The notes beneath the pieces were generated by a model. That model was not told where the DNA came from and did no database searches. It worked only from the letters and a program-made list of their open reading frames with translations. The position numbers were made by a program, and so were the translations under genes. A stretch of DNA of 64,000 bases, from positions 64,001 through 128,000 of the forward strand of contig CAWIEK010000060.1 in assembly GCA_963835065.1 (NCBI GenBank), written 5' to 3'. Shown here in pieces: positions 3,048 through 48,885 of the stretch (positions are counted from its first letter, which is position 1; each line of letters begins with the position of its first letter). The DNA is from an uncultured Chthonomonadaceae bacterium. Its GTDB lineage: Bacteria > Armatimonadota > Chthonomonadetes > Chthonomonadales > Chthonomonadaceae.

Positions 3048-3405
3048 CGCCTATCAGCAAACCTCCCGCAAAACCAATCCCACAGGAAAAAAGCTAAAAA
3101 ATTAGCGAAAAAGAGCCTTACAACGCCAAAAAAGGTGAACCTTTTACCCCATTCACTCTGTCTATATAGTACAAACGTCTGCTATACAGACGGGAAGGTT
3201 GAACGCTGGTAGTTCCTATCAACTATCAACTATCAACTACTTACTCAGCAAAGGAGGTACAGGCCCATGTCCCACCCCTCCCGTTCGCCCTGACGCCCTT
3301 GAGGTCACGACGCCTCTCTCCTACAACCTGACACAACGAGACATCGGGCTGGAAGCGCTGTATTGCCAAGATTTCGACGATGCCTCTACATACTTCCTTT
3401 TTTCT
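3048..3405 (+). ncRNA. Dispersed element copy 1: ECF-like promoter, hairpin, SD, micro-ORF MSHPSRSP (3267-3293), conserved 92-nt core (3301-3392); putative sRNA
   Basis: Near-identical core at 23959-24050 and 48594-48685, same architecture in all three copies. The ncRNA call is inference. Confidence 0.6.
3137..3164 (+). promoter_or_regulatory. ECF-sigma-like promoter of element copy 1
   Basis: GAACCT-N17-GTCTA; equivalent GAACCC-N16-GTCTA and GAAACC-N16-GTCTA in copies 2 and 3. Confidence 0.6.
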
Positions 3406-3414
3406 ACATACTGT

Positions 3415-5295
3415 TTATCCTCCCACCGCCCAATTCAGCCCCGTATAGCGGCGGTAGCCATAACAGCGGGCGATATGAACGTAGCGGATAGGCGTGGGGC
3501 TGCCGGCGCGGCGGATGGGGAAGGGCGGGTCCCATTCGACGCGCTCAAAGATTTGGCGCAGGTCGTTTACATCGGATTCGCCGTCGTTGAAGAAAATCGC
3601 GTTGTCGCCAAGATGCGCTTCCAATCGTTCCACGTGCGCGGCGTACATCGTCAAGCGCCAGTGCAGGAACATATCGTAAGTGGGCGGATGATCCGGCAGG
3701 TAAAACCCCATCAGGGCGCAATACTGGTAGCCGTTGCCCGCAATAAACACCGGCTGCCCGCTTTTTGCCATGTCCTTCCGAACTTCCTGCACATGCGCCG
3801 CCAAATCGCGCCAGCCATACATCTGCGTAGTCACATCATCTTTAGGCTGCAAGCGTATGCCAACGGCTGACCGCAATTCCGGCGACAGCATCAACACGGT
3901 CAGCAGGGCGCTCGTGAGGAAGATAGTTGATAGTTGATAGTTGATAGTTGATAGAACAGGAAGTGATGAGTGATGAGTGATGAGTGATGAGTGTGCATCC
4001 AATTCATCATTCCTCATTCCGCGTTCAGCATTGTCTTCTGTTCCCTGTTCCCTGTTCCCTGTTCCCTGTTCTTCTGTCTTCTCTTCTTCTTTTCTCTTTT
4101 TCTTCTTTTCTTCCAAGCGAAGCGCCGCCCACCCCGCCCACAAAATAGTCGGCGTGATCCAGGCGCAGGGGGCCCAGTTGGCCTGTACCTGTGACCGCAG
4201 CGCCATCAGACAGAAGAACAGGAGGACGGGGAAGCCGTGACAGAAGAGGAACAAGGTTTCAGGTGTTCGGGTGTTCAGGTGTTCAGATATTGGGTATTCG
4301 GTATTCGGTGTTGCATCGTAGAGTTTGTTTGCTCTGACTTCTTCTGAGGAGGCGCGTGAATACCTGAACACCTGAACACCCGCCGCAACACACGCAAGAA
4401 ACAAGCCGGGGCCGAGCAGGAGGGCTTGCGAACCGATGAATTCACCTAAGCGGGATAGCGGCGTATGTTTGGTTTTGTAGGCCAAGTAGCCCAGATGCCC
4501 GAACGTCCACCAGTGGTGATGCGCGTTCCACCACAGGACACCCACGTACAGCAGCAGGGTTATCAGAAAGGCGGCGTAGGGTTCGGGACGGCGCAGCCAT
4601 TTGCGATGCGGGGGCGAAATCAGCAGGAACAGCAGCAGGCAGGGCAGGAGGAGCAGCATTGTGTGCTTGCTGAGAAACCCCAGCCCGACGGCAAGCCCCG
4701 CCCACAGCCACGCGCGTTTTTGACCGGCTTCGTTGGTTCCGAACAGGGCGCGTTCCAGAAACACGAGCGCCAAAGCCCAGAAGAACACAAGCGGGGGATC
4801 GTAAGTGGCGATAAGGCTGCCGACGGTCAGGAGCGGGGTTGCGGCGAGAAGTACCACCGTCAGAAATCCGGCGAGCGGCGAGAAAATGCGCTTCGCCAGA
4901 ATATACGCGCAGATTAGTGCGCCCAAACAAGAGGCCCATACCCCAATTCTTACCCCGAATTCGTTGGTTCCGAACAGCAGGGTTGTCAGGCGAATCAGAT
5001 AGGCGATGAATGGCCCCTGATCGTAGTATCCCCACGCGAGATGCCGCGACCAATCCCAATAGTAGGCTTCATCCGGCGCGAGTTCCACGCGCCATAATTG
5101 CGTCAGCCGCAGCAGGGAAGTGATTAGCAGGAACCAGAACGTGGCGCGTTCCCAACGGCGTGTTTCGGTGTTCAGGTGTCGGGTGTCGGGTGTCGGGTGT
5201 TCAGGTATTCGGGTGTTCGGGTGTTTGGTATTGGGTGTTTGGGCGTTGTGAAACTCTTTACCGGGATTGATGTTTGTGATTTGGCGTGAAGGCAT
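3415..5295 (-). CDS. Glycosyltransferase family 39/ArnT-like membrane protein with repeat-derived insertions
   Basis: LAPDEAYYWDWSRHLAWGYYDQGP motif and multiple TM helices. ATG at 5295 overlaps the upstream stop (TAATG). Confidence 0.88.
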   Translation of the reverse strand: MPSRQITNINPGKEFHNAQTPNTKHPNTRIPEHPTPDTRHLNTETRRWERATFWFLLITSLLRLTQLWRVELAPDEAYYWDWSRHLAWGYYDQGPFIAYLIRLTTLLFGTNEFGVRIGVWASCLGALICAYILAKRIFSPLAGFLTVVLLAATPLLTVGSLIATYDPPLVFFWALALVFLERALFGTNEAGQKRAWLWAGLAVGLGFLSKHTMLLLLPCLLLFLLISPPHRKWLRRPEPYAAFLITLLLYVGVLWWNAHHHWWTFGHLGYLAYKTKHTPLSRLGEFIGSQALLLGPGLFLACVAAGVQVFRYSRASSEEVRANKLYDATPNTEYPISEHLNTRTPETLFLFCHGFPVLLFFCLMALRSQVQANWAPCAWITPTILWAGWAALRLEEKKKKRKEEEKTEEQGTGNREQGTEDNAERGMRNDELDAHSSLITHHSSLPVLSTINYQLSTIFLTSALLTVLMLSPELRSAVGIRLQPKDDVTTQMYGWRDLAAHVQEVRKDMAKSGQPVFIAGNGYQYCALMGFYLPDHPPTYDMFLHWRLTMYAAHVERLEAHLGDNAIFFNDGESDVNDLRQIFERVEWDPPFPIRRAGSPTPIRYVHIARCYGYRRYTGLNWAVGG

Positions 5296-6128: not shown

Positions 6129-6333
6129 AGATAGTTCCTTCTTCATGGTTGCCTGACTGTCTGTAACTCTCTTCAACCCACAACCTGTCGGCGTGTTTGC
6201 GCAGAAACTTGAAAAATTGCTGACTGTCACAGCATGGCTTGTTTGTTCGTGCTGTATAATGATACCACTGGTTCGGGCGAAAAGTCGTAGCTAAAACAGG
6301 ATAACCCAAATTACGCCCAAAGTCAAAGACCAG

Positions 6334-7272: not shown

Positions 7273-7282
7273 TGAGTGATGA

Positions 7283-11149: not shown

Positions 11150-11278
11150 GGGATGTTGAACCACCAAGAAATACAAAGAAGACATAAACCACGGGGAACA
11201 CGGGGGACACGGGGAGGATAAGGGGAAAGCAGGGCTATGCGTTAGTCCTGCTTTCTTCTTTATCTCATAAATAGAGGA

Positions 11279-12238
<960 letters not shown>

Positions 12239-20635: not shown

Positions 20636-20765
20636 GCGCGTTTGCGGTTCGTGTTTGTTGGGCGGTGCGGGAAATGGAATAGAGGTATAATGACGATGGC
20701 AGCCGCCACTCAACCGGAAGAAGCAGCAGAGAAAATAGCCGGTGTGCAATGCCGGGGACTCGAAA

Positions 20766-22175
20766 ATGCCCATGACTGAGCCTGAAATCCTGGCCGCGTT
20801 TTACAATAACTGTGATCCGGTCAAACCCGCCGACGCGCCGTTCTATGTGGACTGTACGGATGTGCGGGGCGGGGCGGTTTTCGCCATTAAACTTTATACT
20901 GAACTGTCGCAAACGAATGGGCGCATCCATTCGCTGTTTACGGGACACATTGGGTGCGGCAAATCCTCCGAACTAAAGCATCTTGCCGACAAGATGAGCC
21001 ACAAAACGCTCCTGTCCGGCCAAAAGCGCTTCTTTCCTGTCATCGTGAATATGTCGGAGTATCTGGATGAATACGATGTCAGCACGACGGATATTCTGCT
21101 GTCCGTTGTCACGGAATTAGCCGACGCGCTGCGAAAACAGGAAGGTATTGAGATCGCTCCCTCCTACCTCAATCGCCAGTGGGACGAAGTGAAAGACTAT
21201 CTTGGCAGCGAACGTGAGATAAAGGAAGGGGAACTGTCACTGCCGTTTATCAAGACCAAAATGCAGCGTCTGCGCACGGACCCTGTTGCGCGGCATAAGG
21301 TGCGCGAGAAACTGCTTCCGCAAACCAGCAGCCTGCTGGAAGAGATCAATCTTGCTTTTGTGGCCGCGCGGACGGCTCTGCTCAAAAAAGCGCCCCAGGA
21401 CGGCGGCCAGCGTTACTCGGATTTTGTGCTGATTCTGGACAACCTGGAAAAGGTACAACGGCTTGTGGCAAACGCGCCGGGCGACGCTTCACAGCGCGCG
21501 TTGTTTATCGAAGGAGCGCCACAACTTACCGCGCTTGACGCGCACGTTGTTTTTACCGTGCCCCTCGCTCTGGTTCGCAGCGAGGGAAATTTGCTGATGC
21601 AGAAGTACAGCAAAGAGTTATTCGTGCTGCCCATGATTAAAACCGAACAGCGGGGACACGCGCATCTGCCCTTTGAAACAGGACGCGAGAAACTGGTGGA
21701 GTTGCTGGAAAGGCGCGTACCGTCCGGCGTATCTCTTGCCGATGTATTTGAAAAGGACGCGCTTGACTTTCTGATTGAATACTCTGCCGGCCATGTCCGC
21801 AACCTGATGATGTTTGCCCGCGAAACCACGCTGTATGTCAATGGTAAACTTCCGATTCCCCTCATTGCCGTACAGCGCGCGATTGCGCAGACGGTAAGTA
21901 TCCTTGTGCCCTCCGTCCGTCCTCACGATTGGGAATTGCTGGCGCAACTCGAACTGTCGGAATTGCAGGATTGGAACAACAACGGCCTGGAGGAACGTCG
22001 TTTGCTGGAAAATCTATGCGTGATGGAGTACATCAACGGTGGTGACGATGAACCGCTGATTGAATCATCCCCATGGTACGCCGTGAATCCTGTTCTGCGC
22101 ATACAGCGCGCCTTCAAAAATGCCGTCAAAGCCGAAAAGCAAAAACAGACATTGCCGCAAATCGTCACGGCATAA
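20766..22175 (+). CDS. P-loop (STAND-like/AAA) ATPase
   Basis: Walker A GHIGCGKS, Walker B LILDNLEK, YSAGHVRNL, C-terminal WYAVNP. Confidence 0.85.
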   Translation: MPMTEPEILAAFYNNCDPVKPADAPFYVDCTDVRGGAVFAIKLYTELSQTNGRIHSLFTGHIGCGKSSELKHLADKMSHKTLLSGQKRFFPVIVNMSEYLDEYDVSTTDILLSVVTELADALRKQEGIEIAPSYLNRQWDEVKDYLGSEREIKEGELSLPFIKTKMQRLRTDPVARHKVREKLLPQTSSLLEEINLAFVAARTALLKKAPQDGGQRYSDFVLILDNLEKVQRLVANAPGDASQRALFIEGAPQLTALDAHVVFTVPLALVRSEGNLLMQKYSKELFVLPMIKTEQRGHAHLPFETGREKLVELLERRVPSGVSLADVFEKDALDFLIEYSAGHVRNLMMFARETTLYVNGKLPIPLIAVQRAIAQTVSILVPSVRPHDWELLAQLELSELQDWNNNGLEERRLLENLCVMEYINGGDDEPLIESSPWYAVNPVLRIQRAFKNAVKAEKQKQTLPQIVTA

Positions 22176-22184
22176 AGTGAGCAT

Positions 22185-23150
22185 GTGGTGGACGTACAAC
22201 AATCCTCTCTCTTTGACTTTCCGCCCGATCTGGAAGGCCAGAAAAACGCTCTGACGACGGCCCTGCAAATTGTGCAGGACTTTGCGCTGTACATCGTTGT
22301 CTCGGAACCGTCGCGCGTCCGCCCGCGCCTGATGCGCGAAATGGAGGCGCGGCTTGGCGGCAAGACTATACAGCATATTGTCGTTCCAAAAGAAACCAGA
22401 AACCTCCTCCATCTGCTTGCCGACAATCTGACCGACCCTTTGCCCGACATCGTGTTTGTCTACGGCCTTGAAAACAGCATTTCCGCGTCCGCAGAACCCC
22501 GCTCTCATCCCCTGCTTCTAAACCTGAACGCTGCCCGAAACAATTTTTATGCTCTGCTGCCGCGCCCCATGGTACTGTGGATTCCCGCCTTTGTCTTAAA
22601 GGCTATTGTCGAGGCCGCGCCGGATTTCATTTCGGTGCGAAGCGGCGTGTACACGTTCCCCTTAAACTCTGATGAACGCCGGGAAATGGCTGATTCTGCC
22701 TTAATCATTGGTCAAACAAAACTGCTTGGTTTAGAATACATGGAGGGGGAAGCCCGAATCAGAGAGATGCTTAGTCTCTTATCAGAATACCGTTCGCTCC
22801 CGACACACGCGCGCAGTTCACAGGACGAAGCGCGAATTTTGAATCAATTGGCGCTTGCTTATCATGCTATAGGTAACTACTCGGAAGCGGAGCCATTGTT
22901 CACCGAAGTATTGGCAATACGGCGTCAGAGGTTGCCTGAAGGACATGCGGACATTGCAAACAGCCTCAACAACCTGGCAGCGCTTTACGATGCACAGGGG
23001 CGCTATCAGGAAGCGGAGCCACTATACAAGGAAGCTTTGAAGATTATTCGTAAGATTTTGGGAGAGGAACATCCACAAACAAAAAGTTTTATTACAAACT
23101 TGGAGAGGTTCCTTGCTGACAAAACCAAGCGTGATTTTGCTTCTGAATAA
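22185..23150 (+). CDS. Degenerate NTPase-like N-terminal domain + kinesin-light-chain-type TPRs
   Basis: LNLNAARNNF...MVLWIP...AAPDFISVRSG N-domain; SLNNLAALYDAQGRYQEAEPLY TPRs. Confidence 0.85.
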   Translation: MVDVQQSSLFDFPPDLEGQKNALTTALQIVQDFALYIVVSEPSRVRPRLMREMEARLGGKTIQHIVVPKETRNLLHLLADNLTDPLPDIVFVYGLENSISASAEPRSHPLLLNLNAARNNFYALLPRPMVLWIPAFVLKAIVEAAPDFISVRSGVYTFPLNSDERREMADSALIIGQTKLLGLEYMEGEARIREMLSLLSEYRSLPTHARSSQDEARILNQLALAYHAIGNYSEAEPLFTEVLAIRRQRLPEGHADIANSLNNLAALYDAQGRYQEAEPLYKEALKIIRKILGEEHPQTKSFITNLERFLADKTKRDFASE

Positions 23151-23197
23151 TCTTATCAAACTTCCGGCTTCACAGGAGAACGAAAGGAAATCAGCAA

Positions 23198-23725
23198 ATG
23201 CCTGACCGGATTATACGCGAAATACCCTTGATTGAACGCTATGCGCGTCAGAACGAAAACGAAGACTGGCGGTTTCGCGCCCATTTGAAAGGCGAACTGG
23301 ACCTGTCCAACGAAGAACTCGACGCGGTTGTGAGGGAAACGACGGATGAAGTATGGAAGCAGATTGATTGTACGACGTGCGCCCACTGCTGCAAAACGCT
23401 GGAAATCGTCGTGGACAACAAAGATATAGCCCGCCTGGCGCAGCATTTCAACGTATCCGCCCGTGAGTTTACAAACCGCTACGTGAAGGTTACGGAAGAC
23501 AAAACAAAGATTTTCTCGTCCCTGCCCTGCCCGTTTTTAGGAGAAGACAACCGCTGCACCGTGTACGAAGACCGCCCATTGGCCTGCCGCGAATATCCCT
23601 ATCTGTATGAAGAGCATTTCCGTTCCCGCACCATCAGCATGATTGGAAACGCGGCCTGCTGCCCGATTGTATTCAACGTGTGGGACCGGCTCAAGCGGCA
23701 GTTCAAACCCCGCCGCAGACGTTAA
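23198..23725 (+). CDS. YkgJ/CxxCxxCC-family Zn/Fe-chelating protein
   Basis: CTTCAHCC, CPFL, CTVYEDRPLACREYP. Confidence 0.88.
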   Translation: MPDRIIREIPLIERYARQNENEDWRFRAHLKGELDLSNEELDAVVRETTDEVWKQIDCTTCAHCCKTLEIVVDNKDIARLAQHFNVSAREFTNRYVKVTEDKTKIFSSLPCPFLGEDNRCTVYEDRPLACREYPYLYEEHFRSRTISMIGNAACCPIVFNVWDRLKRQFKPRRRR

Positions 23726-23946
23726 GGGTTCGTAGCGCCAAATCCGCGCTGACAAAAGCAAAGTCTATTCTCTCTGTCGTTCCTTTCACCCGCGCCAACA
23801 CTGCCGATAGACACCACCGCACACTTACATGAAACCGCTTCCACCGCAACCCTTGTCTGAGATGTCTATTAGTACCGCTGCGACATCCTGTTGGCCGCCA
23901 CCCGTATTGCAACGGGAAGTCCTGCAAGCGTTGGAAGAGCGGTAAG

Positions 23947-24312
23947 TAGAAAAAAGAGTATGTAGAGGCATCGTCGAAATCTTGGCAATACAGCGCTTCC
24001 AGCCCGATGTCTCGTTGTGTCAGGTTGTAGGAGAGAGGCGTCGTGGCCTCGAAAGCGTCAAGGCGGATGGGAGGGGTGAAACATAGGACTGGCACCTCCC
24101 TTCTTGGTTAGGGTTTTAGGGTTCTAGGGTTTTAGGTTGATAGTTGATAGGAACTGCGAACGTTCAGCCTTCCTGTGTGTCTAACATCTGAATAACAGAC
24201 CTTATTCTACTGTTTAGACGGCTATACGTGGCAAAGGGTTCACAGATTTCGCGTTGTTTTGCTCTTTTTTCTATCTTTTTTCTGGATTGTTTTTGCGGGA
24301 GGGTTGCTGTTG
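23947..24312 (-). ncRNA. Dispersed element copy 2: micro-ORF MFHPSHPP (24058-24084), core 23959-24050
   Basis: Core differs from copy 1 at 1 of 92 nt. Promoter-like boxes at 24236-24241 and 24215-24219; SD at 24094-24100. Confidence 0.6.
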
Positions 24313-24508
24313 GCGTCGCGCGGGGAACGAGGAAGGGGCACTTGCTAACTTACCAATAATGGTAATTGAATATTGAGCAATTACATAAGAATTAAGTTGC
24401 GTTAGCCCTGTTGTCTTCGCCGCTTCGCCCGAAGTTGGGTACGAAATACGGGTATAATATTAAGTAAGCAACAATTCACAACAGGGGTAAAAGGACACAG
24501 AAGTCGTT

Positions 24509-26986
24509 ATGAGCCAGAACGCCACTCCGGGAATAGGGACTCGCGCCTTCATCAGCCACAACAGCAAGGACAAACCGTTTGTTCGCACTCTGGAAGCCGA
24601 TTTGCAAGCGAATGGTTGCACGGCCTGGGTGGACGAAAACCAGATGTATGCGGGCGATTCGCTGCTGCAAGGAATTTCAACCGGCCTGCAGAACAACGGT
24701 TACGTACTTGCCGTATTTTCAGCCCATTTTGCGGCGTCGAATTGGGCGCAACAAGAAATTTCGGCAGCAGTTGCTATGCAAAACAGTGGCAAGGGAATCA
24801 AAGTCATTGTCTTGCGGCTCGATGATACACCTTTGCCTGCTTTGCTGCAAGGCAGTATCTACGTTGATTTTCGCGGCGATTATACTGCCGGCCTGAACCA
24901 ACTCCTCCGCGCGCTCACCCGTCCCGTTGCCACACCCATACAAGCCCCCGTCACTTTGTCTGTAGACCGTGCCAAACTTGTTGCGGTACTCAATAGTTTG
25001 GATAGCGTGTCGCTAACAAGCGTCATCAATCACATTGCTGGTGCGGGTACGCATGACAGTCCTCTACAGCCCGTGCCAATACGAGTTCAGGCGTTGCTCG
25101 GATTTGCCGAAGGCGCAGTCGGGCCTGGCCTGAACGCGGTTGCATCCGTCGTTGTGCAGTTGTTCCCTAATACGGCCTCTAAAATCGGCCCTTTCCGTTA
25201 AGCCCTGCCGTTTCCGGCACAACGACAGGGCGTTCGACACTGCCAACATTCAATGCGTACTTTACGGGACGTGAATGCCAGATGAACGACTTGCGCACTG
25301 CTCTGACAAGTGGCGGATCGGCGGCGGTGACGCAGGCGATCTCCGGTTTGGGCGGCGTGGGGAAAACCGCGCTTGCCGTCGAGTACGCGCATATTTATCG
25401 TGACCACTACGATACGCTGCTTTTTGCCCTCGCTGACTCCATTACCTCGCTGAACAGCGCTTATAAAGCTATCGCCGCGCAGTTGGGATTGCCGCAGGCC
25501 GCAAGCGATGATTTTGAAGTTGTGGCACAGGCGGTAAAACACCATCTGAACACGGCAACGCCCTCCCGCAAAGGCATTACACCTTACCTGTTGATTTTGG
25601 ACAACGCCGACTTTGGCACAACGCTCAAGCCCAACGATCTAAAAAGATTTCTACCCAATACCCCGACCGGTCATGTGCTGCTGACAACGCGCGCTCAAGT
25701 CCTGCATGGCGGGTTGGGTGTAAAGCCAAACCACGTCCTGCGCCTGGACGTAATGGTGGAGGAAGAGGCGTTTCGTTTTCTGGCAGAGCGCGTAGGCGGC
25801 GAGGGCGCGATACGGACGGGCGATGAGGCAACAGCGGCCTCAGAACTGGCGCGTGAGTTAGGGTATCTGCCGTTAGCGCTGGAGCAGGCGGCGGCCTACA
25901 TCGCGCAGCCAAGTCGTACCTTTCGCAACTACCTGAACCTGTACCGCAAGCGTTCGATTGAGGTTGTGGAACGCAACGCGCCGGAAACGGGAGATTATAA
26001 CAAAACAGTAGCGACGACGTGGCAAATCAGTTTTGATGAGGTAGAGCGCGAATGTTCGGCGGCGGCGGACTTGCTGCGCCTGTGCGCGTTTGTTGCCCCG
26101 GACTCTATCCCCATAGAAGTGATTTTAGCAGCAGCGAACGGTGAGGTGGAAAGCATTACGACGTTCTTTGGAATTTTGGAAGATACTGAAGTCAACAAGG
26201 ACAATGGCAATACTTTGCTGCAAGCGCTGGCACGTTACTCCCTGATAATGTGGAAGCATGAGTCGCATACGTTCAATGTGCATCGGTTGGTGCAGGCTGT
26301 AACACGCTGGCAGATGAAAGCGGATATACGGCAAGCATGGATAAAACAAGCAGTAAACGTCTTGAACTTGGCATTTCCGAACTCTGATTTTGAGAATTGG
26401 ACACGATGTGAACGACTAACTGCTCACGCACAAGCACTAGAGAAATTGTCTCAGAAAAGACGAGCATTGCAGCGACTCGGTAACACTGCTGGGCCGCATC
26501 GCTTCTTACTTGTATCAGCGTGGGCGCTATGAGGAAGCGGAGCCACTTTATAAAGAGGTATTAGCAGTTTATCGGAAAAATTTACTCTCAAATCACCGAG
26601 AATTTGCTGTTTATCTTAACAATCTGGCAGTGCTTTATAATACGCAGGGGCGTTATGTAGAGGCAGAAGCACTAATCAACGAAGTGTTAGCATTACGGCG
26701 TAAGAACCTGCCGGAAAATCATCCCGATGTTGCAAACAGTCTTAACAATCTGGCAGCAGTTTACCATAAGCAGGGGCGCTATGTGGAAGCCGAGGTTTCC
26801 TACAAAGAAGCCGTAGTTATTCTGCGCATTAAATTTGGAGATGACCATCCAAATACAAAATTTGTCGCTGAGAACCTGAAAACATTCCTTGCTGAGAAGA
26901 AAGAGCGTACTGCCTTTGTGCAACATTTCAAACTGCCGACTTCACTTTCAAAACAGCGGCAATACCGTTTGAAACGGCCCAAATAA
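24509..26986 (+). CDS. TIR-helical-NB-ARC-TPR NLR-like protein, split by two apparent frameshifts (about 25183 and 26455)
   Basis: TIR (AFISHNSKDKPFV, SNWAQQE). The NB-ARC frame is open from 25183 and reads NAYFTGRE...GLGGVGKT...LILDNAD...GYLPLALEQAAAYI...HRLVQ, followed by LNNLA TPRs. Confidence 0.82.
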
Positions 26987-29735: not shown

Positions 29736-32700
29736 ATGACCCCCACAGTACCGAAGCAGACGAGTCATTTTACATCACGGGGGGAACGCTTCCGCCCGAT
29801 GCGCGTTCCTACATCGCCCGCGATGCCGACGACGCCCTGTACAACGCCCTGCTTGCCGGCGAAACCTGCTACGTCCTCAACAGTCGGCAGATGGGCAAAA
29901 GCAGCCTGTGCGTTCGCGCAATGGGCAGGCTGCAAGACGCGGGGGCGCGTACCGTTTTCCTCGATCTGTCCAAGTTCGGCGCCAATAACCCGACCGTAGA
30001 ACAATGGTACTTTACGCTCCTCAACGAAATCGGCAGGGAACTCGATTGTCGCCCCGCCCTGTTCGCGTACTGGAAGCAAAATGACGCCCTGCCGTTCGTG
30101 CAGCGCGTGTTCGGCGCTCTGACCGACATCGCGCTGCCCGCCGCCCCCTCCTCCATCGTCGTGTTTGTGGACGAGATTGACATCACGCGGACGCTGCCGT
30201 TCGAGACGGACGAGTTCTTTGCCGCGATACGGCAACTCGTGGTGGGCAGAGCAACGGACGCGAAGCTGAAGAAGTTGGCGTTCTGTCTGTTGGGAACCGC
30301 CGCGCCGCAGGACCTCATTCAAAACACGGCCATCACGCCCTTCAATGTCGGCAAGCGCGTGGAAGTGACGGACTTTACCCCGCAGGAAGCCGCGCCCCTT
30401 GCAGAAGGATTGAACCACGGGGGACACGGGGAACACGGGGGAAAGCGGGAAAGGGAAAGCAGGGGAGAGAAACTGCTGCAACGGGTATTGTATTGGACCA
30501 ACGGCCACCCCTACCTGACGCAACGCCTATGCAGCGCCATAGTCGAAGCCCAAACTCCTCCTCCGACACCCGACACCCGAAACCCGATACCCTCTCCTCG
30601 ACACCCGACACCCGACACCCGACACCCTCCGTGGACTCCCTCTGCCACAACCTCTTCCTCTCCCACGCGGCGACGGAAAGCGACGACAACCTTGCCAATG
30701 TGCGCAACCGCCTGCTCAAAAACGACGCGGACATGGCTTCGCTGCTCACGCTGTACGGGCAGATACGGGAAGGCAAGCGCGTACCGGATGACGAAACCAA
30801 TCCCCTCTGCGCGTTGCTAAAGTTGAGCGGCGTGGCGAAAGTGGAAAACGGTTTGTTGAAGGTACGCAACCGCATCTACGCGACCGTGTTCGATGCGAAG
30901 TGGGTCACAACCCACATGCCGGACGCCGAACTGCGACGGCAGAAGGAAGCGTACCGCAAAGGCGTGACGCGAACAGGAGCGTGGGCGGGAGCGATTATCA
31001 CGTTGTTTGTCTGTCTCGCCGCGTTCGCCTTCTCCAAAGCCAACGAAGCCCAAAGCAATGCAAGAGAGGCTCACAAACAGACCAGGTTGGCGCAGCAAAA
31101 TGCGCAGTTGGCACAACGAAATGCTGAGAAGGAGACTGCTGCCCGCGCCGACGCCGACAAAAGCGCGCAGCAGGCTCGTAACAATGCGCAGAAAGCACAG
31201 AAGCAGACACAACTCGCCAAACAACGTTTGAAGGACGTACAAAAAGCCAACTCGGCTACCCAAAAGGCTCTCACGAAAGCACAGCAAAATGCCATAGAAG
31301 CTAGGAAACAGGCACATCTTGCCTCCGACAACGCCCGTCGCGCGGAGCAGGCCAACGGCAATGCTTCCAAAGAGAGCGCGACACGCTCGCAAGGCAGAGC
31401 AACTCGCGCTAGAAGAGAAAGACAAAGCCAACCACAACCTGTACGTTGCCAACATGAACCTGATACAAAGGGATTGGGACAACAACAATGTCGGGAGTGT
31501 ATTGGAGTTGTTGGAAGCGACACGCCAACGATACTCCCACGAGTTCGAGTGGGGATACTGGAACCGCCAGTGTCATCTGGATTTGAAAACGCTCAAAGGG
31601 CATACAGACGATGTTGATGCCGTCGCCTTCTCTGCCGACGGCAAGCGGATTGTCACGGGCAGCAGCGACAAAACGGCGAAGGTATGGGATGCGCAAACCG
31701 GACAGGTAACACTTACGCTCAATGGGCATACGAACTTTGTTACTGCCGTCTGCTTCTCTCCCGATGGCAAGCGGATTGTCACAGGCAGTTGGGACAAAAC
31801 GGCCAAGGTGTGGGACGCGCAAAGCGGACAGCCACTGCTCACGCTCAAAGGGCATACAGACAATGTTGATTCCGTCTGCTTACTCTCCCGATGGCAAGAG
31901 GATTGTCACGGGAAGTAGGGACAACACAGCGAAAGTGTGGGATGCGCAAACCGGACAGGAAATACTTACGCTCAAAGGGCATACTCCCAGTTACTATGCC
32001 GTCGCCTTCTCTCCCGATGGCAAGCGGATTGTCACAGGTGGTTACGACAAGACGGCGAAGGTGTGGGACGCGCAAAGCGGACAGCCACTGTTCACGCTCA
32101 AAGGACATACAAACGATATTGATGCCGTACGCCTTCTCGCCCGATGGCAAGAGGATTGTCACAGGCAGTAGGGACAAAACAGTGAAGGTGTGGGATGCGC
32201 AAACTGGGCAGGAAACACTCACGCTCAATGGGCATACAAACGATGTCCTTGCCGTTGCCTACTCACCAGATGGCAAGAGGATGGTCACAGGCAGCTGGGA
32301 CGACACGGCGAAGGTGTGGGACGCCCAGAGTGGACAGGAGACACTTACGCTCAAAGGACATACTAGTTTTGTTACTGCCGTCGCCTTCTCTCCCGATGGC
32401 AAGAGAATCGTGACGGGTAGTTGGGACAAAACAGTGAAGGTGTGGGATGCGCAAACTGGACAGGAAACACTTACACTCAAAGGACATACGAACACTATCG
32501 CCGCTGTTGCCTTCTCGCCGGATGGCAAGAGGATTGTCACGAGTAGCGGAAATGTTTTTTCAGGTGGTTACGACAAAACGGCGAAGGTGTGGGACGCGCA
32601 AAGCGGACAGCCACTGCTCACGCTCAAAGGACATACGAACTTTGTTACTGCCGTCGCCTTCTCTCCCGATGGCAAGAGAATCGTGACGGGTAGTAATGAC

Positions 32701-32757
32701 CACACGGCGAAAGTGTGGATTTCCGATCCGAATGCAAAAAGTCTGCGTGAAAAATAG
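29736..32757 (+). CDS. AAA_35 (STAND-like) NTPase - TM - coiled coil - 9x WD40 protein, five apparent frameshifts
   Basis: FYITGGTL, RQMGKSS, VFVDEID, TPFNVG, WTNGHPYLTQ, VRNRIY, TM helix, Ala/Gln/Lys coiled coil, GHT...WD repeats. Breaks near 29742, 30590, 31380, 31878 and 32130. Confidence 0.82.
31585..32720 (+). repeat. Nine highly similar ~126-bp WD40 coding repeats
   Basis: Recurrent ACGCTCAA(A/T)GG(G/A)CATAC...GATGGCAAG...GTGTGGGA(T/C)GCGCAAA. Confidence 0.9.
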
Positions 32758-32854
32758 AATTCGACAGCAGGCAACAACTGTCACTAACAGTTTAGATTTT
32801 GTGCGCAACATTCCATCACGCGCCCGCAGTTCCGCGCTTTTCAGGAGGGGCTTC

Positions 32855-34927
32855 ATGCCTGCCAGCACAGCCTTTGACGCGCGTATCGCGCACGTTCTCT
32901 TTCTCGACATCGTTGGTTACTCCCGCCAGACGACGACGGCTCAGTCGCGCCTGATAGAGAAACTGAACGCTGTCCTCAACACCGTTCCCACGCTTGTCGC
33001 TGCAAAGTCCGCCGAAGCCGTCCACATTATGCCCCTTGGCGACGGCATGCCGCTCGCGTTCTGGGAGGATGTCCTCGCGCCCGTTCGCGCCGCTGTCGAA
33101 ATCGCTCATGCCGCCAACCGGAACGCGCTGCCCCTTCGCATCGGCCTTCACAGCGGGCTTGTTTTGCCGCAGATAGACGCCGCAGGCCGCGATAACTTTA
33201 TCGGGGAAGGCATCAACACCGCGCAGCGCGTCATGGACTTCGGCGATGCCGGACACATCCTCCTCTCCGCCCAATACGCCGCGTGGCTTCAGCACTTCGA
33301 CGAATGGGCTGATTTAATCCACCCGCTCGGCGAAGGAACCGCCAAACACGACCAGATCATCTCCCTGTACAGCCTGTACGGGGAGGATTTCGGGCTTGCC
33401 ACTCCGCCCGCCAAACTCACCAGGCCCGCCACAAACCAGTCCACTCCCGCCGCGCAAATTGTCGCGCCCGGCAAGCGCATCGTACTGCTGTATCGTCCCA
33501 ATCTCCAGCCCGACGAGAACGTTCTGCACACGCTCGAAGCCCGCCTGCAAATGCTGGGGCACGAGGTCTTCATAGACCACCAACAAAAAATCAGCCCCGC
33601 GTGGGCCAGAGCCGTTGAGGAGCCAATTCGCCGCGCCGACGCCGTTGTCGCCATCGTTTCTCCGCTCTCCCTTCGCTCCGAAATGCTCGAATACGAGGTC
33701 GAAACCGCGCACGACCAGTTCCTCCACTCCGGCAAACCCATCCTCCTGCCCGTTCGTATCGGCCCGGAAGAGCCGCCGGAAGGAGCCATCGTTTCCATCC
33801 TCCAGCCGCTCCATTATTTCACCTGGAACAGCCCCGACGACGACGAGCGCCTGATTGCCGAACTTTTATCCGCCATTACCGAACCCCTCAAGCCTCGTTC
33901 CGAAGAGATACAGTTGGAACCCATTGGCGGCGCGGTTCCTCCCAACTCTCCGTTTTACGTGCGCCGGGAGTGCGATGCGGAGTTTTTCAAGGCGCTGGAC
34001 GCGCGCGAAAGTATCCTGTTGGTGAAAGGGGCGCGGCAGGTCGGCAAAACCTCCCTGCTGGCGCAGGGAATCATTCACGCGGAGGAAGCAGGCTATCGCG
34101 TTGCCATGACCGACTTCCAGAAGTTCAATACCGCCCAACTCGCGTCCGATGAAATCTTCTACAAACTGCTTGCCACCATCCTTATGCGGCAATTAAAGTT
34201 TGCCTACGATTTTGAAGGCGCCTGGAACGCGATTTTAGGGGGAAATATGTGCATGGAGGACTTCCTGCGTGACCTTCTGAATTCTGCCGGGGAACATCTG
34301 GTCTGGTTCATGGACGAAGTAGACAAAGTCTTTGCCGCGCCGTTTGCCACCGACTTCTTCGCCCTCGTTCGCTCGTGGCACAACTCCCGCTCCACCGAGC
34401 GCTCCGGTCCCTGGCGCAAGCTCACGGTCGTCATCGGCTACGCCACCGAAGCCCATCTCTTCATTCGAGACCTCAATCAATCCCCGTTCAACGTCGGGCG
34501 CAAACTTAATCTGGAGGACTTCAAGCTTCAGCAGACCGCGGACCTGAATGGACGGTATGGCGGGCCGTTGAAAAGCCACGCCGAAGCCGAAGCCCTCTAC
34601 GCCCTGATTGGCGGACAGCCCTTCCTCACCCGCGCTGCCCTCGACGCGCTGGCGTCCGGGCGCGAATCGCTGCCTTCCCTCCTCGCACACGCCGACGCGG
34701 ATGACGGACCGTTCAGCGACCACCTCAAGCGCCTGCTTATCTCCGTTTCCGTTCTGCCGGATGTGGCCGATTATGCGCGGGCTGTGCTTGCCGGTTCCGC
34801 CCTGCCGCATCAGGACGCCTATTACCGCCTGCTTTCCGCCGGAATCATCAAGCATCCCGGCGGCGGCAAGGTAGATTTCCGCTGCGAACTCTACCGCCGC
34901 TATCTTTCCCGCCTGTTGCCGGCATAG
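32855..34927 (+). CDS. Class III nucleotide cyclase + TIR + AAA_35 NTPase
   Basis: FLDIVGYS, GDG, RIGLHSG, GEGINTAQRVM (cyclase); VFID...AW...SEMLEYEV (TIR); GARQVGKTS, MDEVD, SPFNVG, GGQPFL (AAA_35). ATG after SD AGGAGG. Confidence 0.9.
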   Translation: MPASTAFDARIAHVLFLDIVGYSRQTTTAQSRLIEKLNAVLNTVPTLVAAKSAEAVHIMPLGDGMPLAFWEDVLAPVRAAVEIAHAANRNALPLRIGLHSGLVLPQIDAAGRDNFIGEGINTAQRVMDFGDAGHILLSAQYAAWLQHFDEWADLIHPLGEGTAKHDQIISLYSLYGEDFGLATPPAKLTRPATNQSTPAAQIVAPGKRIVLLYRPNLQPDENVLHTLEARLQMLGHEVFIDHQQKISPAWARAVEEPIRRADAVVAIVSPLSLRSEMLEYEVETAHDQFLHSGKPILLPVRIGPEEPPEGAIVSILQPLHYFTWNSPDDDERLIAELLSAITEPLKPRSEEIQLEPIGGAVPPNSPFYVRRECDAEFFKALDARESILLVKGARQVGKTSLLAQGIIHAEEAGYRVAMTDFQKFNTAQLASDEIFYKLLATILMRQLKFAYDFEGAWNAILGGNMCMEDFLRDLLNSAGEHLVWFMDEVDKVFAAPFATDFFALVRSWHNSRSTERSGPWRKLTVVIGYATEAHLFIRDLNQSPFNVGRKLNLEDFKLQQTADLNGRYGGPLKSHAEAEALYALIGGQPFLTRAALDALASGRESLPSLLAHADADDGPFSDHLKRLLISVSVLPDVADYARAVLAGSALPHQDAYYRLLSAGIIKHPGGGKVDFRCELYRRYLSRLLPA

Positions 34928-40272: not shown

Positions 40273-40404
40273 TCTATACCGACTGCCAACCGGTTTAACG
40301 TTGGCATCACAGCGGCACGGGTGTGAAGGAGATATAGCATCACTATCACGTAAGCGCCAATCGGTTGAAGATTTGCAGGGCAGTCCTGGAAGGAAACGGA
40401 AGTT

Positions 40405-42672: not shown

Positions 42673-42755
42673 TGTTTTCACTCCTTGTCGTATGTTACTG
42701 CGCGCTTGTTGTGTTCTTGATCTTCTTCGGCAGGAATCGTTTCCGCGCCTCCGCA

Positions 42756-43631: not shown

Positions 43632-43703
43632 AGCATTTTCCTTTGCTCTCATGCAGAACGTTTCTACAGTCGTATCAACGCCCAACACCCAATACCTAAC
43701 ACC

Positions 43704-44537: not shown

Positions 44538-44758
44538 GTCATTCTCCTTTTCATGGCAAGCCTGCGCCGGTTTGCCATCCTGTTTCTCAGGAGTTCACCT
44601 TTACACAGGAGTTTTCCTGCCGGAAGGCTGTATTGGCGCGCGATTTACTGTTAAGGCCGTCTCCTGAGCCGGGGATTTTCAATCCTCGGCAGAAAAGAGA
44701 GGTGTGGCGCAGTGAAATTTTTCGCCACATTTTTGCCCTGTGAACGTCAAAGTCAATT

Positions 44759-47089
44759 ATGTTACTCAGTAAACTGACACAATCTGCGCTTGGCATGATT
44801 GCGGCCCCTCTTACTTTATTAACGCTTGCGTGGACGCTGCCTGCCGATGCCGGGTCGGGCGCGTTGGCTGCGCCTGCCACCGGGCAGAAGATTTATCAGC
44901 AGCAATGCGCGTCGTGTCACGGCGCAAAGGGCGAGGGCGCGAAAGCGTACTCCAAGCCGCTGGCAGGCAGCCGCTCTCCCGGCGAATTGGCGCGATTTAT
45001 TGCGCAGAATATGCCGCCCGGCCCGCGGAAATGCGCCACGCCGGATGCGCAAAAAGTTGCTTCTTATATCTATGATGCGTTTTATTCGCCGCTTGCGCAG
45101 GCGCGGAACAAGCCTGCCCGCATTGCCCTGTCGCGCCTGACCGTGCCGCAGTTTCGCAACGCTGTTGCCGACCTGTTGAGCGACGGGCATCCGGTTGTGC
45201 CTGCGCAAGCCACTCGCGGCTTGCAGGGCGAGTATTTCAAGGCGCAGCGATTTGACAATGGCAATCGCCTGCTGCAGCGCGTTGACCCGGAAGTGAAATT
45301 TGATTTTGGCACGGACGGCCCGGTTCCCGATAAGTTCGACCCGCACCATTTTTCTATTCGCTGGCAGGGCAGCGTTCTGGCCCCGGATACCGGCGAGTAC
45401 GATTTTGTTGTCAGAACCGACCATGCGGTTCGGATTTGGGTGAATGACAATAGCAAACCTTTGATTGACGCCTGGGTGAAGTCGGGCAGCGACAACGAGT
45501 TTCACGGCTCGCTGACCCTGCTTGGCGGGCGCGCGTACCCCCTGCGCCTGGAATTTTCCAAGTCCACGCAGGGCGTAGATGATTCGGAGAAGAAGAAGGG
45601 CAAACCCGCGCCGCCCGCTTCGATTGAATTGCTGTGGAAACGGCCCAAACAGGCGATGGAAACCATTCCGCAGCGCTGTTTGTTTCCCGCTTCCGTTCCT
45701 GAAACGTTCGTTGTGGCGACGCGCTTTCCGCCCGATGACCGCAGCATCGGCTACGAGCGGGGCACATCCGTTTCCAAAGCCTGGGAGGAAGCGAGTACCG
45801 CAGCCGCGCTGGAAACGGCAGGTTACGTCACCGAACATTTGGACCGGCTTGCCGACGCCAAACCGGACGCGCCGGAGCGCAAAGCGAAATTGCAGGCGTT
45901 TTGCCGCCGGTTCGTGGAACGCGCCCTGCGCCGTCCTTTGACCGATGAGGTTGCGCAGTTTTACATTGACAAGCAGTTCCGTACCGCGCCCGATGTGGAA
46001 ACGGCGGTAAAGCGGGTTGTCGCGCTGACGCTGCTTTCGCCCCGGTTCCAATACCGGGAAAGCGAAACGCGGGCTGCGGATGCGTATGACACGGCTTCGC
46101 GCCTGTCGTTCGGATTGTGGGACAGCCTGCCCGACGCTGACCTGCTGAAAGCGGCCCGCGAGGGCGCGCTTACGACGCGAGAGCAGATCGCAAAACAGGC
46201 CGAGCGCATGGCTGCTGACCCGCGCGCCTGGAACAAACTGCGCGCCTTTCTGCTGTTCTGGCTCAAGGTGGATCAAAGCCCGGAGTTGGCGAAGAACCCG
46301 AAGAAGTACCCGGATTTCGACCCGTCCGTCGCTTCCGACCTGCGCGCCTCGCTGGAACTGTTTCTGGAAAATGTCGCGTGGGGCGAAAAGTCGGATTATC
46401 GGGAACTGATGACAACCCAAACCGTCTACCTGAACGGGCGACTGGCGAAACTGTACGGCGTCAATCTTCCCGCCGACGCGCCGTTTCAGCCCGTCGTTCT
46501 GGACGCGGCGGAGCGTTCCGGTGTGCTGACGCAGCCATATTTGCTGTCCACTTTCGCGTACCTGGACACCAGTTCGCCGATTCATCGGGGCGTTTTGCTG
46601 GCGCGTAATCTGCTGGGGCGCACTCTCAGCCCGCCGCCCGCCGCGTTCACGCCGCTTGCCGCCGACCTGCACCCGAACATGACGACCCGGCAGCGCGTCG
46701 AGATGCAAACCAAGCCCGCCGCCTGTGTGGGCTGTCACGGCCTGATCAATCCGCTCGGCTTCACGCTGGAAAAGTTCGACGCTATCGGCAGGCTGCGCAA
46801 TCAGGAAAACGGACAAGTGATTAATGCGGCAGGCAGTTACCGCGCCCGCAGCGGCAATTTGGTGACGTTCGCTTCCGCGCCGCAATTGGGCCGTTATCTG
46901 GCTGACAGCGAGGAAGCCCACGCCGCATTTGTGGAAAAACTGTTCCAGAATCTGATCAAGCAGCCGGTTCTGGCATACGGCCCGCAAACCCTGCCAAATT
47001 TAGAGCGCAACTTCGCCGCGAATCAGTATAATATCCGTAAGCTGATGGCGGATATTGTGGTGGCTTCGATTGCAGGCATCAGGCATTAG
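44759..47089 (+). CDS. Cytochrome c + PA14 + DUF1595/DUF1592/DUF1588-type protein
   Basis: CASCH, PA14 (FSIRWQGSV), ASRLSFGLWDSLPD, SSPIHRG, CVGCH...NPLGFTLEKFDAIG. Confidence 0.88.
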   Translation: MLLSKLTQSALGMIAAPLTLLTLAWTLPADAGSGALAAPATGQKIYQQQCASCHGAKGEGAKAYSKPLAGSRSPGELARFIAQNMPPGPRKCATPDAQKVASYIYDAFYSPLAQARNKPARIALSRLTVPQFRNAVADLLSDGHPVVPAQATRGLQGEYFKAQRFDNGNRLLQRVDPEVKFDFGTDGPVPDKFDPHHFSIRWQGSVLAPDTGEYDFVVRTDHAVRIWVNDNSKPLIDAWVKSGSDNEFHGSLTLLGGRAYPLRLEFSKSTQGVDDSEKKKGKPAPPASIELLWKRPKQAMETIPQRCLFPASVPETFVVATRFPPDDRSIGYERGTSVSKAWEEASTAAALETAGYVTEHLDRLADAKPDAPERKAKLQAFCRRFVERALRRPLTDEVAQFYIDKQFRTAPDVETAVKRVVALTLLSPRFQYRESETRAADAYDTASRLSFGLWDSLPDADLLKAAREGALTTREQIAKQAERMAADPRAWNKLRAFLLFWLKVDQSPELAKNPKKYPDFDPSVASDLRASLELFLENVAWGEKSDYRELMTTQTVYLNGRLAKLYGVNLPADAPFQPVVLDAAERSGVLTQPYLLSTFAYLDTSSPIHRGVLLARNLLGRTLSPPPAAFTPLAADLHPNMTTRQRVEMQTKPAACVGCHGLINPLGFTLEKFDAIGRLRNQENGQVINAAGSYRARSGNLVTFASAPQLGRYLADSEEAHAAFVEKLFQNLIKQPVLAYGPQTLPNLERNFAANQYNIRKLMADIVVASIAGIRH

Positions 47090-47158
47090 GCATCAGGCAT
47101 TAGATGCAAAGCCCTTCTGTCTCATAACTCATGCCTAATGCCTAATGCCTGATGCCTA
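47074..47158. repeat. Inverted heptamer arrays (AGGCAT(C/T))n / (TGCCT(A/G)A)n forming a hairpin
   Basis: 47074-47103 and 47131-47158 are reverse complements, at the junction of two co-oriented genes. Confidence 0.8.
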
Positions 47159-47181
47159 AATACTTGAACAAGGAAAACTAC

Positions 47182-48513
47182 GTGACTTATTCCAATAGCC
47201 GACGCGCGTTTTTGCGAGACTTGGGGTTGAGCGCCGCCGCGCTGCCGTTTCTGAGCAATCTGCCCTGCCTTGCCGCACCGGGCGGAGCGGGCAAAATTCG
47301 GCGCAAGCAGCGCATGGTGATTATGTTCAGCCCGGACGGCGTGGTTCCCAATACGTTTTGGCCGGACGAGGAAGGCGAGAACTTTACGCTCAAGGAGAGC
47401 CTGAAGCCGCTGGAGCCGTTCAAAAACAAAACGCTGATTTTGCGGGGCGTCAGTGACAAGATTCGCGGGGATGGCGACGGCCACATGCGCGGTATCGGCT
47501 GCCTGCTGACGGGCATCGAACTGTTTCCCGGCAATGTGCAGGGCGGCTCGGACACGCCCGCAGGCTGGTCGAGCGGCCTTTCGATAGATCAGGAAATCAA
47601 GAACTATTTGCAGGCGGACGCTGCGACGCGAACCCGTTTCGGCTCGCTGGAATTCGGCGTGATGGTTCCTGACCGCGCGGATACGTGGACGCGCCTGTCG
47701 TATGCCGGCCCGAACAAGCCGGTTGCGCCCATTGACGACCCGTACCAGATGTTCGGCAAATTGTACGGGCAGTTGAAAGACCAGGAAACGCTGAAAAGCG
47801 TCCTGGACGATTTGGGCGCGGATCTGGCGAAAGTGCGGGCGCGGGTGGGCGCGCAGGATAGGCAGATTCTGGACGAGCATACCACGCTTGTCCGCGAAAT
47901 GGAGCAGGAGATACGGACGGCTAAGTCGGGAAGCATCGGACACGCGGTTCCCATTTTGGAGCCGGGGGTTCGGCGCGACAACGACAGCATGCCGCAAATC
48001 AGTAAGCTGCAAATTGATTTGCTGGTCAACAACTTCGCGGCGGACTTTTCCCGCGTCGCCACGCTGCAATACACCAATTCGGTTGGGCAAGCGCGTATGC
48101 GCTGGCTGGGTATCAACGAGGGGCAGCACGACCTGTCGCATCAGCCCGACAGCGACACGAGCGCGCAGGAAAAACTCACCCGCGTCAACCAGTGGTATTG
48201 CAGCCAACTGGCGTACCTGGCGAAGCGCCTGGCGGAAACCCCGGAACCGGGCGGGGCCGGCAGCCTGCTGGATAACACGCTGCTCGTGTGGACAAACGAA
48301 CTGGGCAAGGGCAACTCGCACACGCTGGAAGACATTCCGTTCGTGCTGGTCGGAGGAGGCCTGGACTTCAAAATGGGCCGTTCCCTGAAATACGCGCATG
48401 TGCCGCACAACCGCCTGCTGCTGTCCCTGGCGCACGGCTTCGGGCATCGCATAGACCGCTTCGGCAACCCCGATTATTGCGCCGCCGGTCCCTTGCCCAA
48501 CATGACCGGGTAA
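47182..48513 (+). CDS. DUF1552 (HXXSHH) protein
   Basis: SRRAFL Tat-like signal, SIDQEI, HDLSH, LLDNTL, GNSH. Canonical partner of DUF1592. Confidence 0.9.
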
Positions 48514-48581
48514 ACTCTGCAAACTCGACCTTCGGGAAGCTCATTTGATGCCAACGGAAAGCGGCAGGCAGAGAAAAGAGC

Positions 48582-48885
48582 AGGAAAAAGCAATATGTAG
48601 AGTCATCGTCGAAATCTTGGCAATACAGCGCTTCCAGCCCGATGTCTCGTTGTGTCAAGTTGTAGGAGAGAGGCGTCGTGACCTCATAAGCGTCAGGGCG
48701 AACGGGAGGGGTGTGGGGACATAGGACTCTTCACCTCCCTTCCTATGTGTATAACGTCTAAATAGCAGACGTTGTTCTACTATTTAGACGACTGTTTGGG
48801 GCAAAGGTTTCCTTTTTTCGCGTTGTATGGGACTTTTTCTATCTTTTTTTCTGCGGAAGTGTTTTTGTGGGATGGTTGCTGTTAG
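48582..48885 (-). ncRNA. Dispersed element copy 3: micro-ORF MSPHPSRSP (48693-48722), core 48594-48685
   Basis: Core differs from copy 1 at 2 of 92 nt. Promoter-like boxes at 48806-48811 and 48785-48789; hairpin at 48753-48773. Confidence 0.6.

Follow-up and report, generated by a model that had tools for sequence, protein, structure and literature searches.

Bacterial repeats that reach about 160 copies in a genome are normally non-coding miniature transposable elements with inverted repeats (MITEs) or REP-like DNA. An arrest peptide, in turn, normally occurs once, as the leader of one operon, TnaC being an example of a leader that ends in proline followed directly by the stop codon (Pro-stop). 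Recoding stimulators, including the bacterial selenocysteine insertion sequence (SECIS), place a hairpin a fixed few nucleotides past a stop codon or slippery site, and the sponge RNAs CsrB, RsmY, and RsmZ, together with 6S RNA, are stand-alone small RNA genes with conserved unpaired loops and a dose effect. Prokaryotic MITEs that carry promoters or yield small RNAs (sRNAs) include Correia/CREE and the Coxiella elements QMITE1 and QMITE2 (PMC10969869), and arrest peptides of the RAPP/RxPP type include ApdA and ApdP (PMC10951233). Here we analyze a unit of <300 bp that occurs three times in a 64,000-nucleotide window (G000:C60:64001-128000) of the genome of an uncultured Chthonomonadaceae bacterium (G000, the host genome; 8.0 Mb, 57% GC), and that combines a promoter, a Shine-Dalgarno sequence (SD), a micro-open reading frame (micro-ORF), and a 92-nt RNA core. 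The shell around part of this family is of a known kind, an ISAs1-type MITE, and the end of the micro-ORF resembles that of arrest peptides; taken as a whole, the unit has no match among catalogued RNA families.

A dispersed unit of promoter, micro-ORF, and RNA core

The three copies described in an earlier note on this window are all present, and exact coordinates could be fixed for each of their parts (Table 1); as stated there, the 92-nt cores of copies 2 and 3 differ from that of copy 1 at 1/92 and 2/92 positions. The prediction of a genome-wide multicopy family also held, with blastn and nhmmer agreeing on 162 core copies in the host genome (81.5–100% identity to the copy-1 core, median 95.7%), and because of this copy number the resemblance of the three window copies lies far beyond chance. 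Three pairs of copies sit within larger duplications, one pair has a 2.4-kb stretch in common, and the rest are ragged-ended. As anticipated, the core is conserved above its flanks, column identity being 0.94–0.97 in the core, 0.62 in the tail, and 0.30–0.31 in the outer flanks. No Rfam family was matched by covariance-model score in the window at the gathering threshold, and the three window matches at E ≤ 10 all fall on a hairpin at 3010-3044, upstream of the unit, and none on the unit itself.

A covariance model built from 40 copies (R1) was used for searches of other genomes. In the two further genomes of the host genus it gave 47 matches (one weak; G002) and 13 (G001), and it gave none in 39 other genomes of the family or 150 of the phylum, with 84 candidates scored per genome for G002 and the family genomes and 23 for the phylum genomes, such that distant forms may be missed. 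Copy number is 162 in the host, 46 or more in G002, and 13 in G001, and on these matches the family is genus-restricted among the genomes searched. Pattern scans returned 0 matches in Joint Genome Institute (JGI) metagenomes, 0 in viral contigs, and at least 33 stretches in genome contigs; among the matches listed, 32 were from Chthonomonadaceae and one was alphaproteobacterial, the latter being dropped as it lies within an apparent coding sequence without the other parts of the unit. No paper describing the family was found in a full-text literature search, whose reach excludes subscription journals and supplements.

Translation of the micro-ORF had been proposed on the strength of the three window copies, and the wider family agrees with it. 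When the first ATG past the SD was taken regardless of frame, it was in frame with the stop in 155/160 host copies, at lengths of 24, 27, 30, or 33 nt (mostly 8–9 codons), and 2 further copies had no ATG. The frame is likewise kept at 30/30 loci in G002, where the pattern recovered 6 of 9 further loci, all in frame, and missed 3, and at 8/9 ATG-started loci in G001. In an anchored alignment of 199 rows (157 from the host, 29 from G002, and 13 from G001; 5 host rows with an atypical hairpin were left out), all 199 rows end in a Pro codon, with all four Pro codons in use and 39/199 other than CCC, and the third-last residue is Arg in 181/199, through four codons. The stop is TGA in 175 rows, TAA in 23, and TAG in 1, most commonly in the context CCC-UGA-C, and hairpin A of the core follows it at a spacing of 7 nt in 192/199. 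The end motif, R-[S/P]-P-stop or more broadly R-[S/P/A]-P-stop, shows synonymous variation, and the N-termini vary freely (MFHPS, MPVYT, MLCLLP, and others). The SD spacer and the post-hairpin linker, which takes 1-nt indels (distance 50–55 nt), vary in single-nucleotide steps and adjoin an ORF whose length changes in threes. With frame, Pro codons, and spacing kept and N-termini free, the micro-ORF appears to be under selection for translation to a Pro-stop near the core rather than for its peptide, and the earlier idea of a micropeptide effector finds no support, only R-x-P-stop and the frame being kept. A C-terminal R[SP]P-stop was found in 0/4884 predicted host genes.

The core is constrained, as proposed, with some covariation in its two helices, hairpin A, with 5 bp and a loop of 6 nt, and stem B, whose 6 bp enclose a loop of 42 nt. 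Across the alignment, 92.7% of cells are paired compared to 37–62% in slid controls, and 16 cells are changed on both sides compared to 3.0 in shuffles. The most invariant bases are those of unpaired loops, and invariance is highest in the 15-mer AGCGCTGYATTGCCA, which lies within the stem B loop. A mutual-information scan was dominated by phylogeny and codon effects and revealed no new helix or pseudoknot. The U-rich tail noticed earlier is present and weakly conserved; inspection of the sequence showed no short hairpin immediately 5' of it, so that it is not a canonical intrinsic terminator.

A promoter of the extracytoplasmic function (ECF)/RpoE shape, which the earlier note had recognized, is a general property of the family: AAC-N15-18-GTCTA precedes 152/162 copies, compared to 6.5% of shuffled upstream regions, with a GAAC-like −35 box, a GTCTA-like −10 box, and a spacer of 16–17 bp. 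Column identity is 0.94 and 0.97 in the two boxes and 0.51 in the spacer, and 111/153 genome-wide matches to the strict pattern sit at family copies. In G001, 5/13 copies carry a different promoter-like motif, CTAAA-N16-ACATAT, which we take to resemble a sigma28 promoter, and these copies keep the core and its 7-nt spacing from the Pro-stop. The common promoter has the same shape as RpoE promoter sequences tabulated in PMC4336711 (Table 1 there). The host genome holds 50 sigma region-4 matches above the cut-off, and the unit would be transcribed by an ECF sigma factor under stress. A hairpin that had been read directly after the promoter is formable in 66/146 copies and is not a conserved part; what is found there instead is a second [GA]TCT[AG] motif, 15–21 nt after the −10 box, in 146/152 copies. 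Repeats of −10-like sequence in initially transcribed DNA cause sigma-dependent pauses with sigma70 and sigma38 (PMC5389655), and the second motif is a candidate for such a pause element. One truncated unit (G000:C54:108950-109180) consists of the upstream block, the promoter, the second GTCTA, and heptamer repeats, without SD, ORF, or core.

One soil metatranscriptome run, which contains a small share of the region (0.07), provided one contig of 197 nt, made up of core (78 nt) and upstream part (119 nt). The contig is that of a relative, its upstream part ends in a PVYTRPP-type micro-ORF, and its 5' end is not placeable against the promoter; we regard it as a weak hint of transcription. Taken together, the unit is very probably some kind of RNA gene that is both transcribed and translated.

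Table 1 Parts of the three window copies (window positions; copies 2 and 3 are on the minus strand)
Feature	Position	Strand	Remark
Copy 1, A-rich upstream block	3053..3136	+	Candidate UP element (role inferred); ragged 5' boundary
Copy 1, ECF/RpoE-type promoter	3137..3164	+	−35 GAACC, −10 GTCTA; conserved boxes
Copy 1, second −10-like motif in initially transcribed region	3177..3191	+	Candidate sigma-dependent pause element; read earlier as a hairpin
Copy 1, variable 5' untranslated region (UTR)	3192..3252	+	CTATCAA heptamer repeats; optional, absent in copy 3
Copy 1, SD GGAGGT	3253..3258	+	In free RNA predicted paired, mostly with the ORF's own C-rich codons
Copy 1, micro-ORF	3267..3293	+	MSHPSRSP-stop
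Copy 1, 92-nt core	3301..3392	+
Copy 1, hairpin A	3301..3316	+	Starts 7 nt past the stop codon
Copy 1, stem B	3338..3392	+	Closes large loop; ends at ACATA
Copy 1, near-invariant 15-mer	3354..3368	+	AGCGCTGYATTGCCA, in stem B loop
Copy 1, pyrimidine/U-rich tail	3393..3405	+	Weakly conserved, column identity 0.62
Copy 2, remnant of ISAs1-type terminal repeat	24392..24410	-	One-sided, degenerate; 5 mismatches, weak
Copy 2, ECF-type promoter	24215..24241	-
Copy 2, second −10-like motif	24186..24200	-
Copy 2, SD and micro-ORF	24058..24099	-	SD 24099-24094; MFHPSHPP-stop 24084-24058
Copy 2, 92-nt core	23959..24050	-	Hairpin A 24050-24035; invariant 15-mer 23997-23983
Copy 3, ECF-type promoter	48785..48810	-
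Copy 3, second −10-like motif	48756..48770	-
Copy 3, SD and micro-ORF	48693..48738	-	SD 48738-48733; MSPHPSRSP-stop 48722-48693
Copy 3, 92-nt core	48594..48685	-	Hairpin A 48685-48670; invariant 15-mer 48632-48618

A proposed ribosome-holding RNA

Termination at Pro-stop is slow, and position +14 from the P-site codon corresponds to the mRNA entry channel. Stalling at RxPP and the role of its Arg have been described for arrest peptides (PMC10951233). The reading that we prefer, at a probability of roughly two in five, is that an RNA of 170–260 nt, driven by its alternative-sigma-type promoter under stress, would load one ribosome on the micro-ORF and hold it at Arg-x-Pro-stop by slow termination. 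Hairpin A is predicted to lie at the entry channel of the held ribosome, the invariant 3' loop would likely bind this parked ribosome or a translation factor, and the many copies would give dose, i.e., sequestration of ribosomes or of the factor.

Several observations weigh against this reading. Gene conversion inflates conservation within a genome, and dose by itself explains neither the even spacing nor the orientation bias of the copies (see below). The frame is broken in 5/160 host copies, one G001 copy has an early stop, and by eye two of the three G002 copies missed by the pattern end in Ser or Thr; four G001 starts at GTG, TTG, or CTG were picked to be in frame and are thus no test of it. 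As for the core, 3/14 pairs change on both sides, which 163/500 shuffles reach, and these changes come mostly from one G001 subfamily; the core shows no folding advantage over shuffles (mean z −0.08, 25 copies). Predicted pairing likelihoods are 0.62 for hairpin A and 0.23 for stem B in the full RNA, compared to 0.82 and 0.66 in the isolated core. No pairing beyond chance, that of the invariant 15-mer included, was found with 16S (longest complementary match 7 nt, or 10 with G-U, at or below shuffles) or 23S (9 nt, or 14 with G-U, which shuffles also reach), and none was evident with tRNA (9 nt at most, a figure with no shuffled control behind it). Finally, support for transcription comes from a single contig (depth 5.6, one run), and RNA libraries can hold DNA.

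The same folding figures would also fit a reading in which the ribosome is a shield or switch: once paused, it would protect or refold the 3' core, for instance by blocking decay from the 5' end, after which the core would act off the ribosome as a protein-binding or base-pairing sRNA. Both helices are likelier in the isolated core than in the full RNA, where the SD competes, the most invariant bases are unpaired loops, and CsrA is encoded in 3/3 genus genomes. Ribosome binding has also been tied to the stability of the ermC and gsiB mRNAs (PMC7509114). No mRNA target emerged, however, as the 15-mer has 1 antisense match in genes at ≤1 mismatch, the loop GGA reads GAA in many copies, unlike a CsrA sponge, and an exact 7-nt spacing is not obviously required by a shield. 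We consider this reading rather unlikely.

ISAs1-type shells, spread, and placement

The earlier note had seen no link to mobile DNA, a view that is not supported, since a subfamily is carried in an ISAs1-type MITE. ISAs1-type ends are found on both sides of 13 of the 162 copies, on one side of 14, and on neither side of 135. The shells measure about 460 bp (about 420–650 bp), with 19-bp inverted ends and no transposase inside, and 10-bp duplications matching at 9 or 10 positions were detected in 8/14 paired shells. For the window itself, the reported lack of terminal repeats and target duplications is right for copies 1 and 3; copy 2 retains a weak, one-sided remnant of a terminal repeat, and no target-site duplication was found at any of the three. 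By the same token, the possibility that the family is the end of a known insertion sequence or MITE applies in part, to 13–14 copies, with 135/162 lacking ends and the core itself not being an insertion sequence end. G002 encodes ISAs1 elements with the same ends (1271 bp, 388-aa PF13808 transposase), and shell and autonomous element have nothing but these ends in common. An autonomous partner was not found in the assemblies of the host (92% complete) or G001, the host genome having only a remnant, GIPSHDTF, at C48:46866, and no shell surrounds any G001 copy examined. Separately, a second element of about 80 bp with ISAs1-type ends and no core is present in at least 3 copies (G000:C34:78138, C55:7337, C63:52096).

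Comparison between species offers a view of how the copies evolve. For 8/30 G002 copies, a host copy lies at the same junction. Of 13 candidate syntenic pairs, 3 were set aside ahead of the ranking, for flanks that matched weakly, for opposite orientation, or for a large offset. When the 162 host copies are ordered by core identity, the host partner in the other 10 pairs comes between 22nd and 129th. Homology of the flanks often starts again just past ACATA. A tree of 114 copies, of which 62 were taken from the 162 in the host, groups by species, with 8 changes compared to 43.7 when shuffled. The species-wise grouping, low syntenic ranks, and resumption of flank homology at ACATA together point to in-place rewriting of the copies, with gene conversion as the simplest route (concerted evolution). 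The three window sites lack a copy in G002; at that of copy 1 the genes on either side are syntenic, and the gap is occupied by a different small repeat. In a check for rearrangement hot-spots, synteny breaks at 24/47 element-free gaps, and 3 G002 element gaps were scorable. Spread may have proceeded through ISAs1 transposase acting on the MITE shell, combined with ectopic gene conversion.

By the gene calls of this analysis, 159/162 host copies are intergenic, and in gaps between co-directional genes units point against the genes in 59 cases and along them in 24 (p 1.5e-4). The downstream gene is convergent in 98/156 and co-oriented in 58/156, and is of unrelated kinds; with this orientation, the units are not leaders of downstream genes. 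Gaps of <10 kb between neighboring copies number 4/105, compared to about 22% under random placement, and the even spacing holds for direct (3/58) and inverted (1/47) pairs alike. A founder locus beside a dedicated protein gene was considered and rejected, the neighbors of the 13 G001 copies being unrelated.

Much of the above could be expected of a selfish repeat, i.e., an ISAs1-derived MITE that, having captured a promoter with a mini-gene, spread and then lost its ends, and that is homogenized by gene conversion, any RNA it makes serving the element or nothing. The shells with their ends and duplications, the transposase-encoding G002 elements that share these ends, the wide differences in copy number between the three genomes, the empty window sites, the species-wise grouping, and the avoidance of pointing into downstream genes, as tolerated insertions would, all agree with such an origin. 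Nevertheless, most copies have no ends, the G001 copies examined have no shell, and the shell shares only its ends with the autonomous element; moreover, DNA transposition needs no reading frame, yet frame, synonymous codons, spacing, and compensatory pairs are kept in three species. A purely selfish repeat is thus, in our judgment, an unlikely account.

The even spacing, alike for direct and inverted pairs, would fit a role at the DNA level, with the units as evenly spaced decoy promoters or transcription points (a sink for sigma factor or RNA polymerase with a promoter-proximal pause, antisense transcription into convergent genes, or boundaries of chromosome domains), and with ORF and core only stabilizing or ending the transcript. 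The second −10-like motif, the concentration of strict promoter matches at units, and the prevalence of convergent downstream genes are in line with this. However, conservation of the core equals that of the promoter boxes, the core is retained where the promoter has been swapped in G001, and purging of close copies by recombination could also yield even spacing; we regard such a role as improbable. The host genome also contains a further intergenic repeat, >200 bp long, whose copies, at least 3 in number, are nearly identical (G000:C8:75723, C23:27382, C23:31921).

Comparison with described systems and significance

Like promoter-carrying MITEs, the units are intergenic, numerous, and equipped with an internal promoter; a subfamily is bounded by terminal inverted repeats, often with 10-bp duplications, and a relative encodes the cognate ISAs1 transposase. 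Unlike them, 135/162 units are without ends, the promoter is ECF-type rather than sigma70-like, a frame-constrained mini-ORF stands at a fixed distance from a covarying core, and units at orthologous sites follow the species consensus. With the RAPP/RxPP peptides, the unit shares a short SD-led ORF, constraint in the last residues, and an Arg two residues before the P-site Pro; it differs in that a stop codon, not Pro, follows its R-x-P, a structured non-coding domain comes next, no regulated gene lies downstream, and there are 162 copies rather than one. A leader of this class was rejected on its R-[S/P/A]-P-stop motif and on the downstream gene being co-oriented in just 58/156 cases and of unrelated kinds. 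Stand-alone small RNA genes with conserved unpaired loops are also typical of sponge sRNAs, whereas the unit has no repeated GGA loops or Rfam match, is apparently translated, and is present in about 160 copies rather than a few; a CsrB/Rsm-type sponge was set aside for its single GGA, which is GAA in many copies, with CsrA itself being encoded.

As with recoding stimulators and SECIS, a hairpin lies 7 nt beyond the A-site codon and would meet the entry channel; unlike in these, no downstream frame is conserved and the stop may be TGA, TAA, or TAG, and stop recoding was rejected on the TAA or TAG stops (24/199) and the 1-nt indels downstream. On the same grounds, a peptide product, whether a micropeptide of 8–16 residues or a longer one made through read-through, selenocysteine, or a +1 shift at CCC-UGA into the core, is highly improbable, even with the +1 frame of copy 1 open through the core (ORF 3199-3870), CCC-UGA-C the commonest stop context, and a selenocysteine tRNA (tRNA-Sec) encoded in the genome, as N-termini vary freely, 39/199 last codons are not CCC, the linker takes 1-nt indels, and some copies have CGA changed to TGA in the +1 frame. 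About 17 tRNA genes of the host are clustered within 2 kb on one contig, with tRNA-Sec elsewhere.

Retron msr-msd RNAs are structured non-coding RNAs (ncRNAs) too, and all three genus genomes encode a retron reverse transcriptase (RT), but the retron has its own 2–3 ncRNAs beside its operon, and folds of the unit show no a1/a2 repeat and no long msd hairpin. The retron RT was rejected as a partner because it also occurs in 4/39 family genomes without the unit and retron RNAs are found only at the RT operon; an 11-nt likeness of one retron RNA to the invariant loop is not kept in other retron RNAs. Variable or template repeats of a diversity-generating retroelement (DGR) were discarded as well, the variable columns not being A-specific and the two RTs found being that of the type XIII retron and a CRISPR-associated one. 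The latter lies between cas2-like and cas1-like genes (L159, G000:C49:680160-683777). The type XIII retron (SWIM-BRCT gene, Mx162-like RT; PADLOC RT_XIII) has its RT at G000:C50:52485-53912, and upstream of its operon stands a tandem array of retron-like ncRNAs (G000:C50:59800-60530, minus strand; also L170 in G001 and L171 in G002). There are three of these ncRNAs in the host, three in G002, and two in G001. They share an msr, but each has an a1/a2 repeat of its own and a long msd hairpin that differs from the others, which would give one RT several templates. Overall, judged by the defining tests of each, the whole unit belongs to none of the Rfam families, RAPP leaders, SECIS, Csr sponges, retrons, or DGRs.

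Around the window copies, heptamer tandem repeats (GTGAAGA/GTGAGA and CTATCAA), arranged as inverted arms, lie at 3000-3045, at 3219-3240, and around 3915-3955; such arrays are very common between genes across the genus and are inserted into the unit's 5' UTR. Copy 2 is flanked by TPR, TIR_2, and NB-ARC genes (window 20742-26532), with a guanylate-cyclase-TIR-AAA gene further on (32696-34927), all of which look like NLR-type defence or signalling genes.

In its boldest form, the ribosome-holding reading would make the family a new bacterial class of RNA gene, a 'ribosome trap' driven by a stress sigma factor, in which dummy ORF, Arg-x-Pro-stop, and entry-channel hairpin freeze a 70S ribosome on which the 3' domain docks. 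Its roughly 160 ISAs1-MITE-seeded, evenly spread, and mutually rewriting copies would then form most of one ECF sigma regulon, storing or withdrawing ribosomes by RNA alone, without a hibernation protein. We regard this extended proposal as doubtful. What sets the family apart is the upkeep of an entire transcription-translation unit in about 160 copies, selection apparently acting on the frame, the last codons, and the 7-nt offset, and not on the peptide. If ribosome trapping is true, it would provide an RNA-only means by which translation capacity is throttled or stored, as well as a short, portable termination-stalling module; even if the units are selfish, they would clearly exemplify, in bacteria, a small gene family that is dispersed and evolves in concert.

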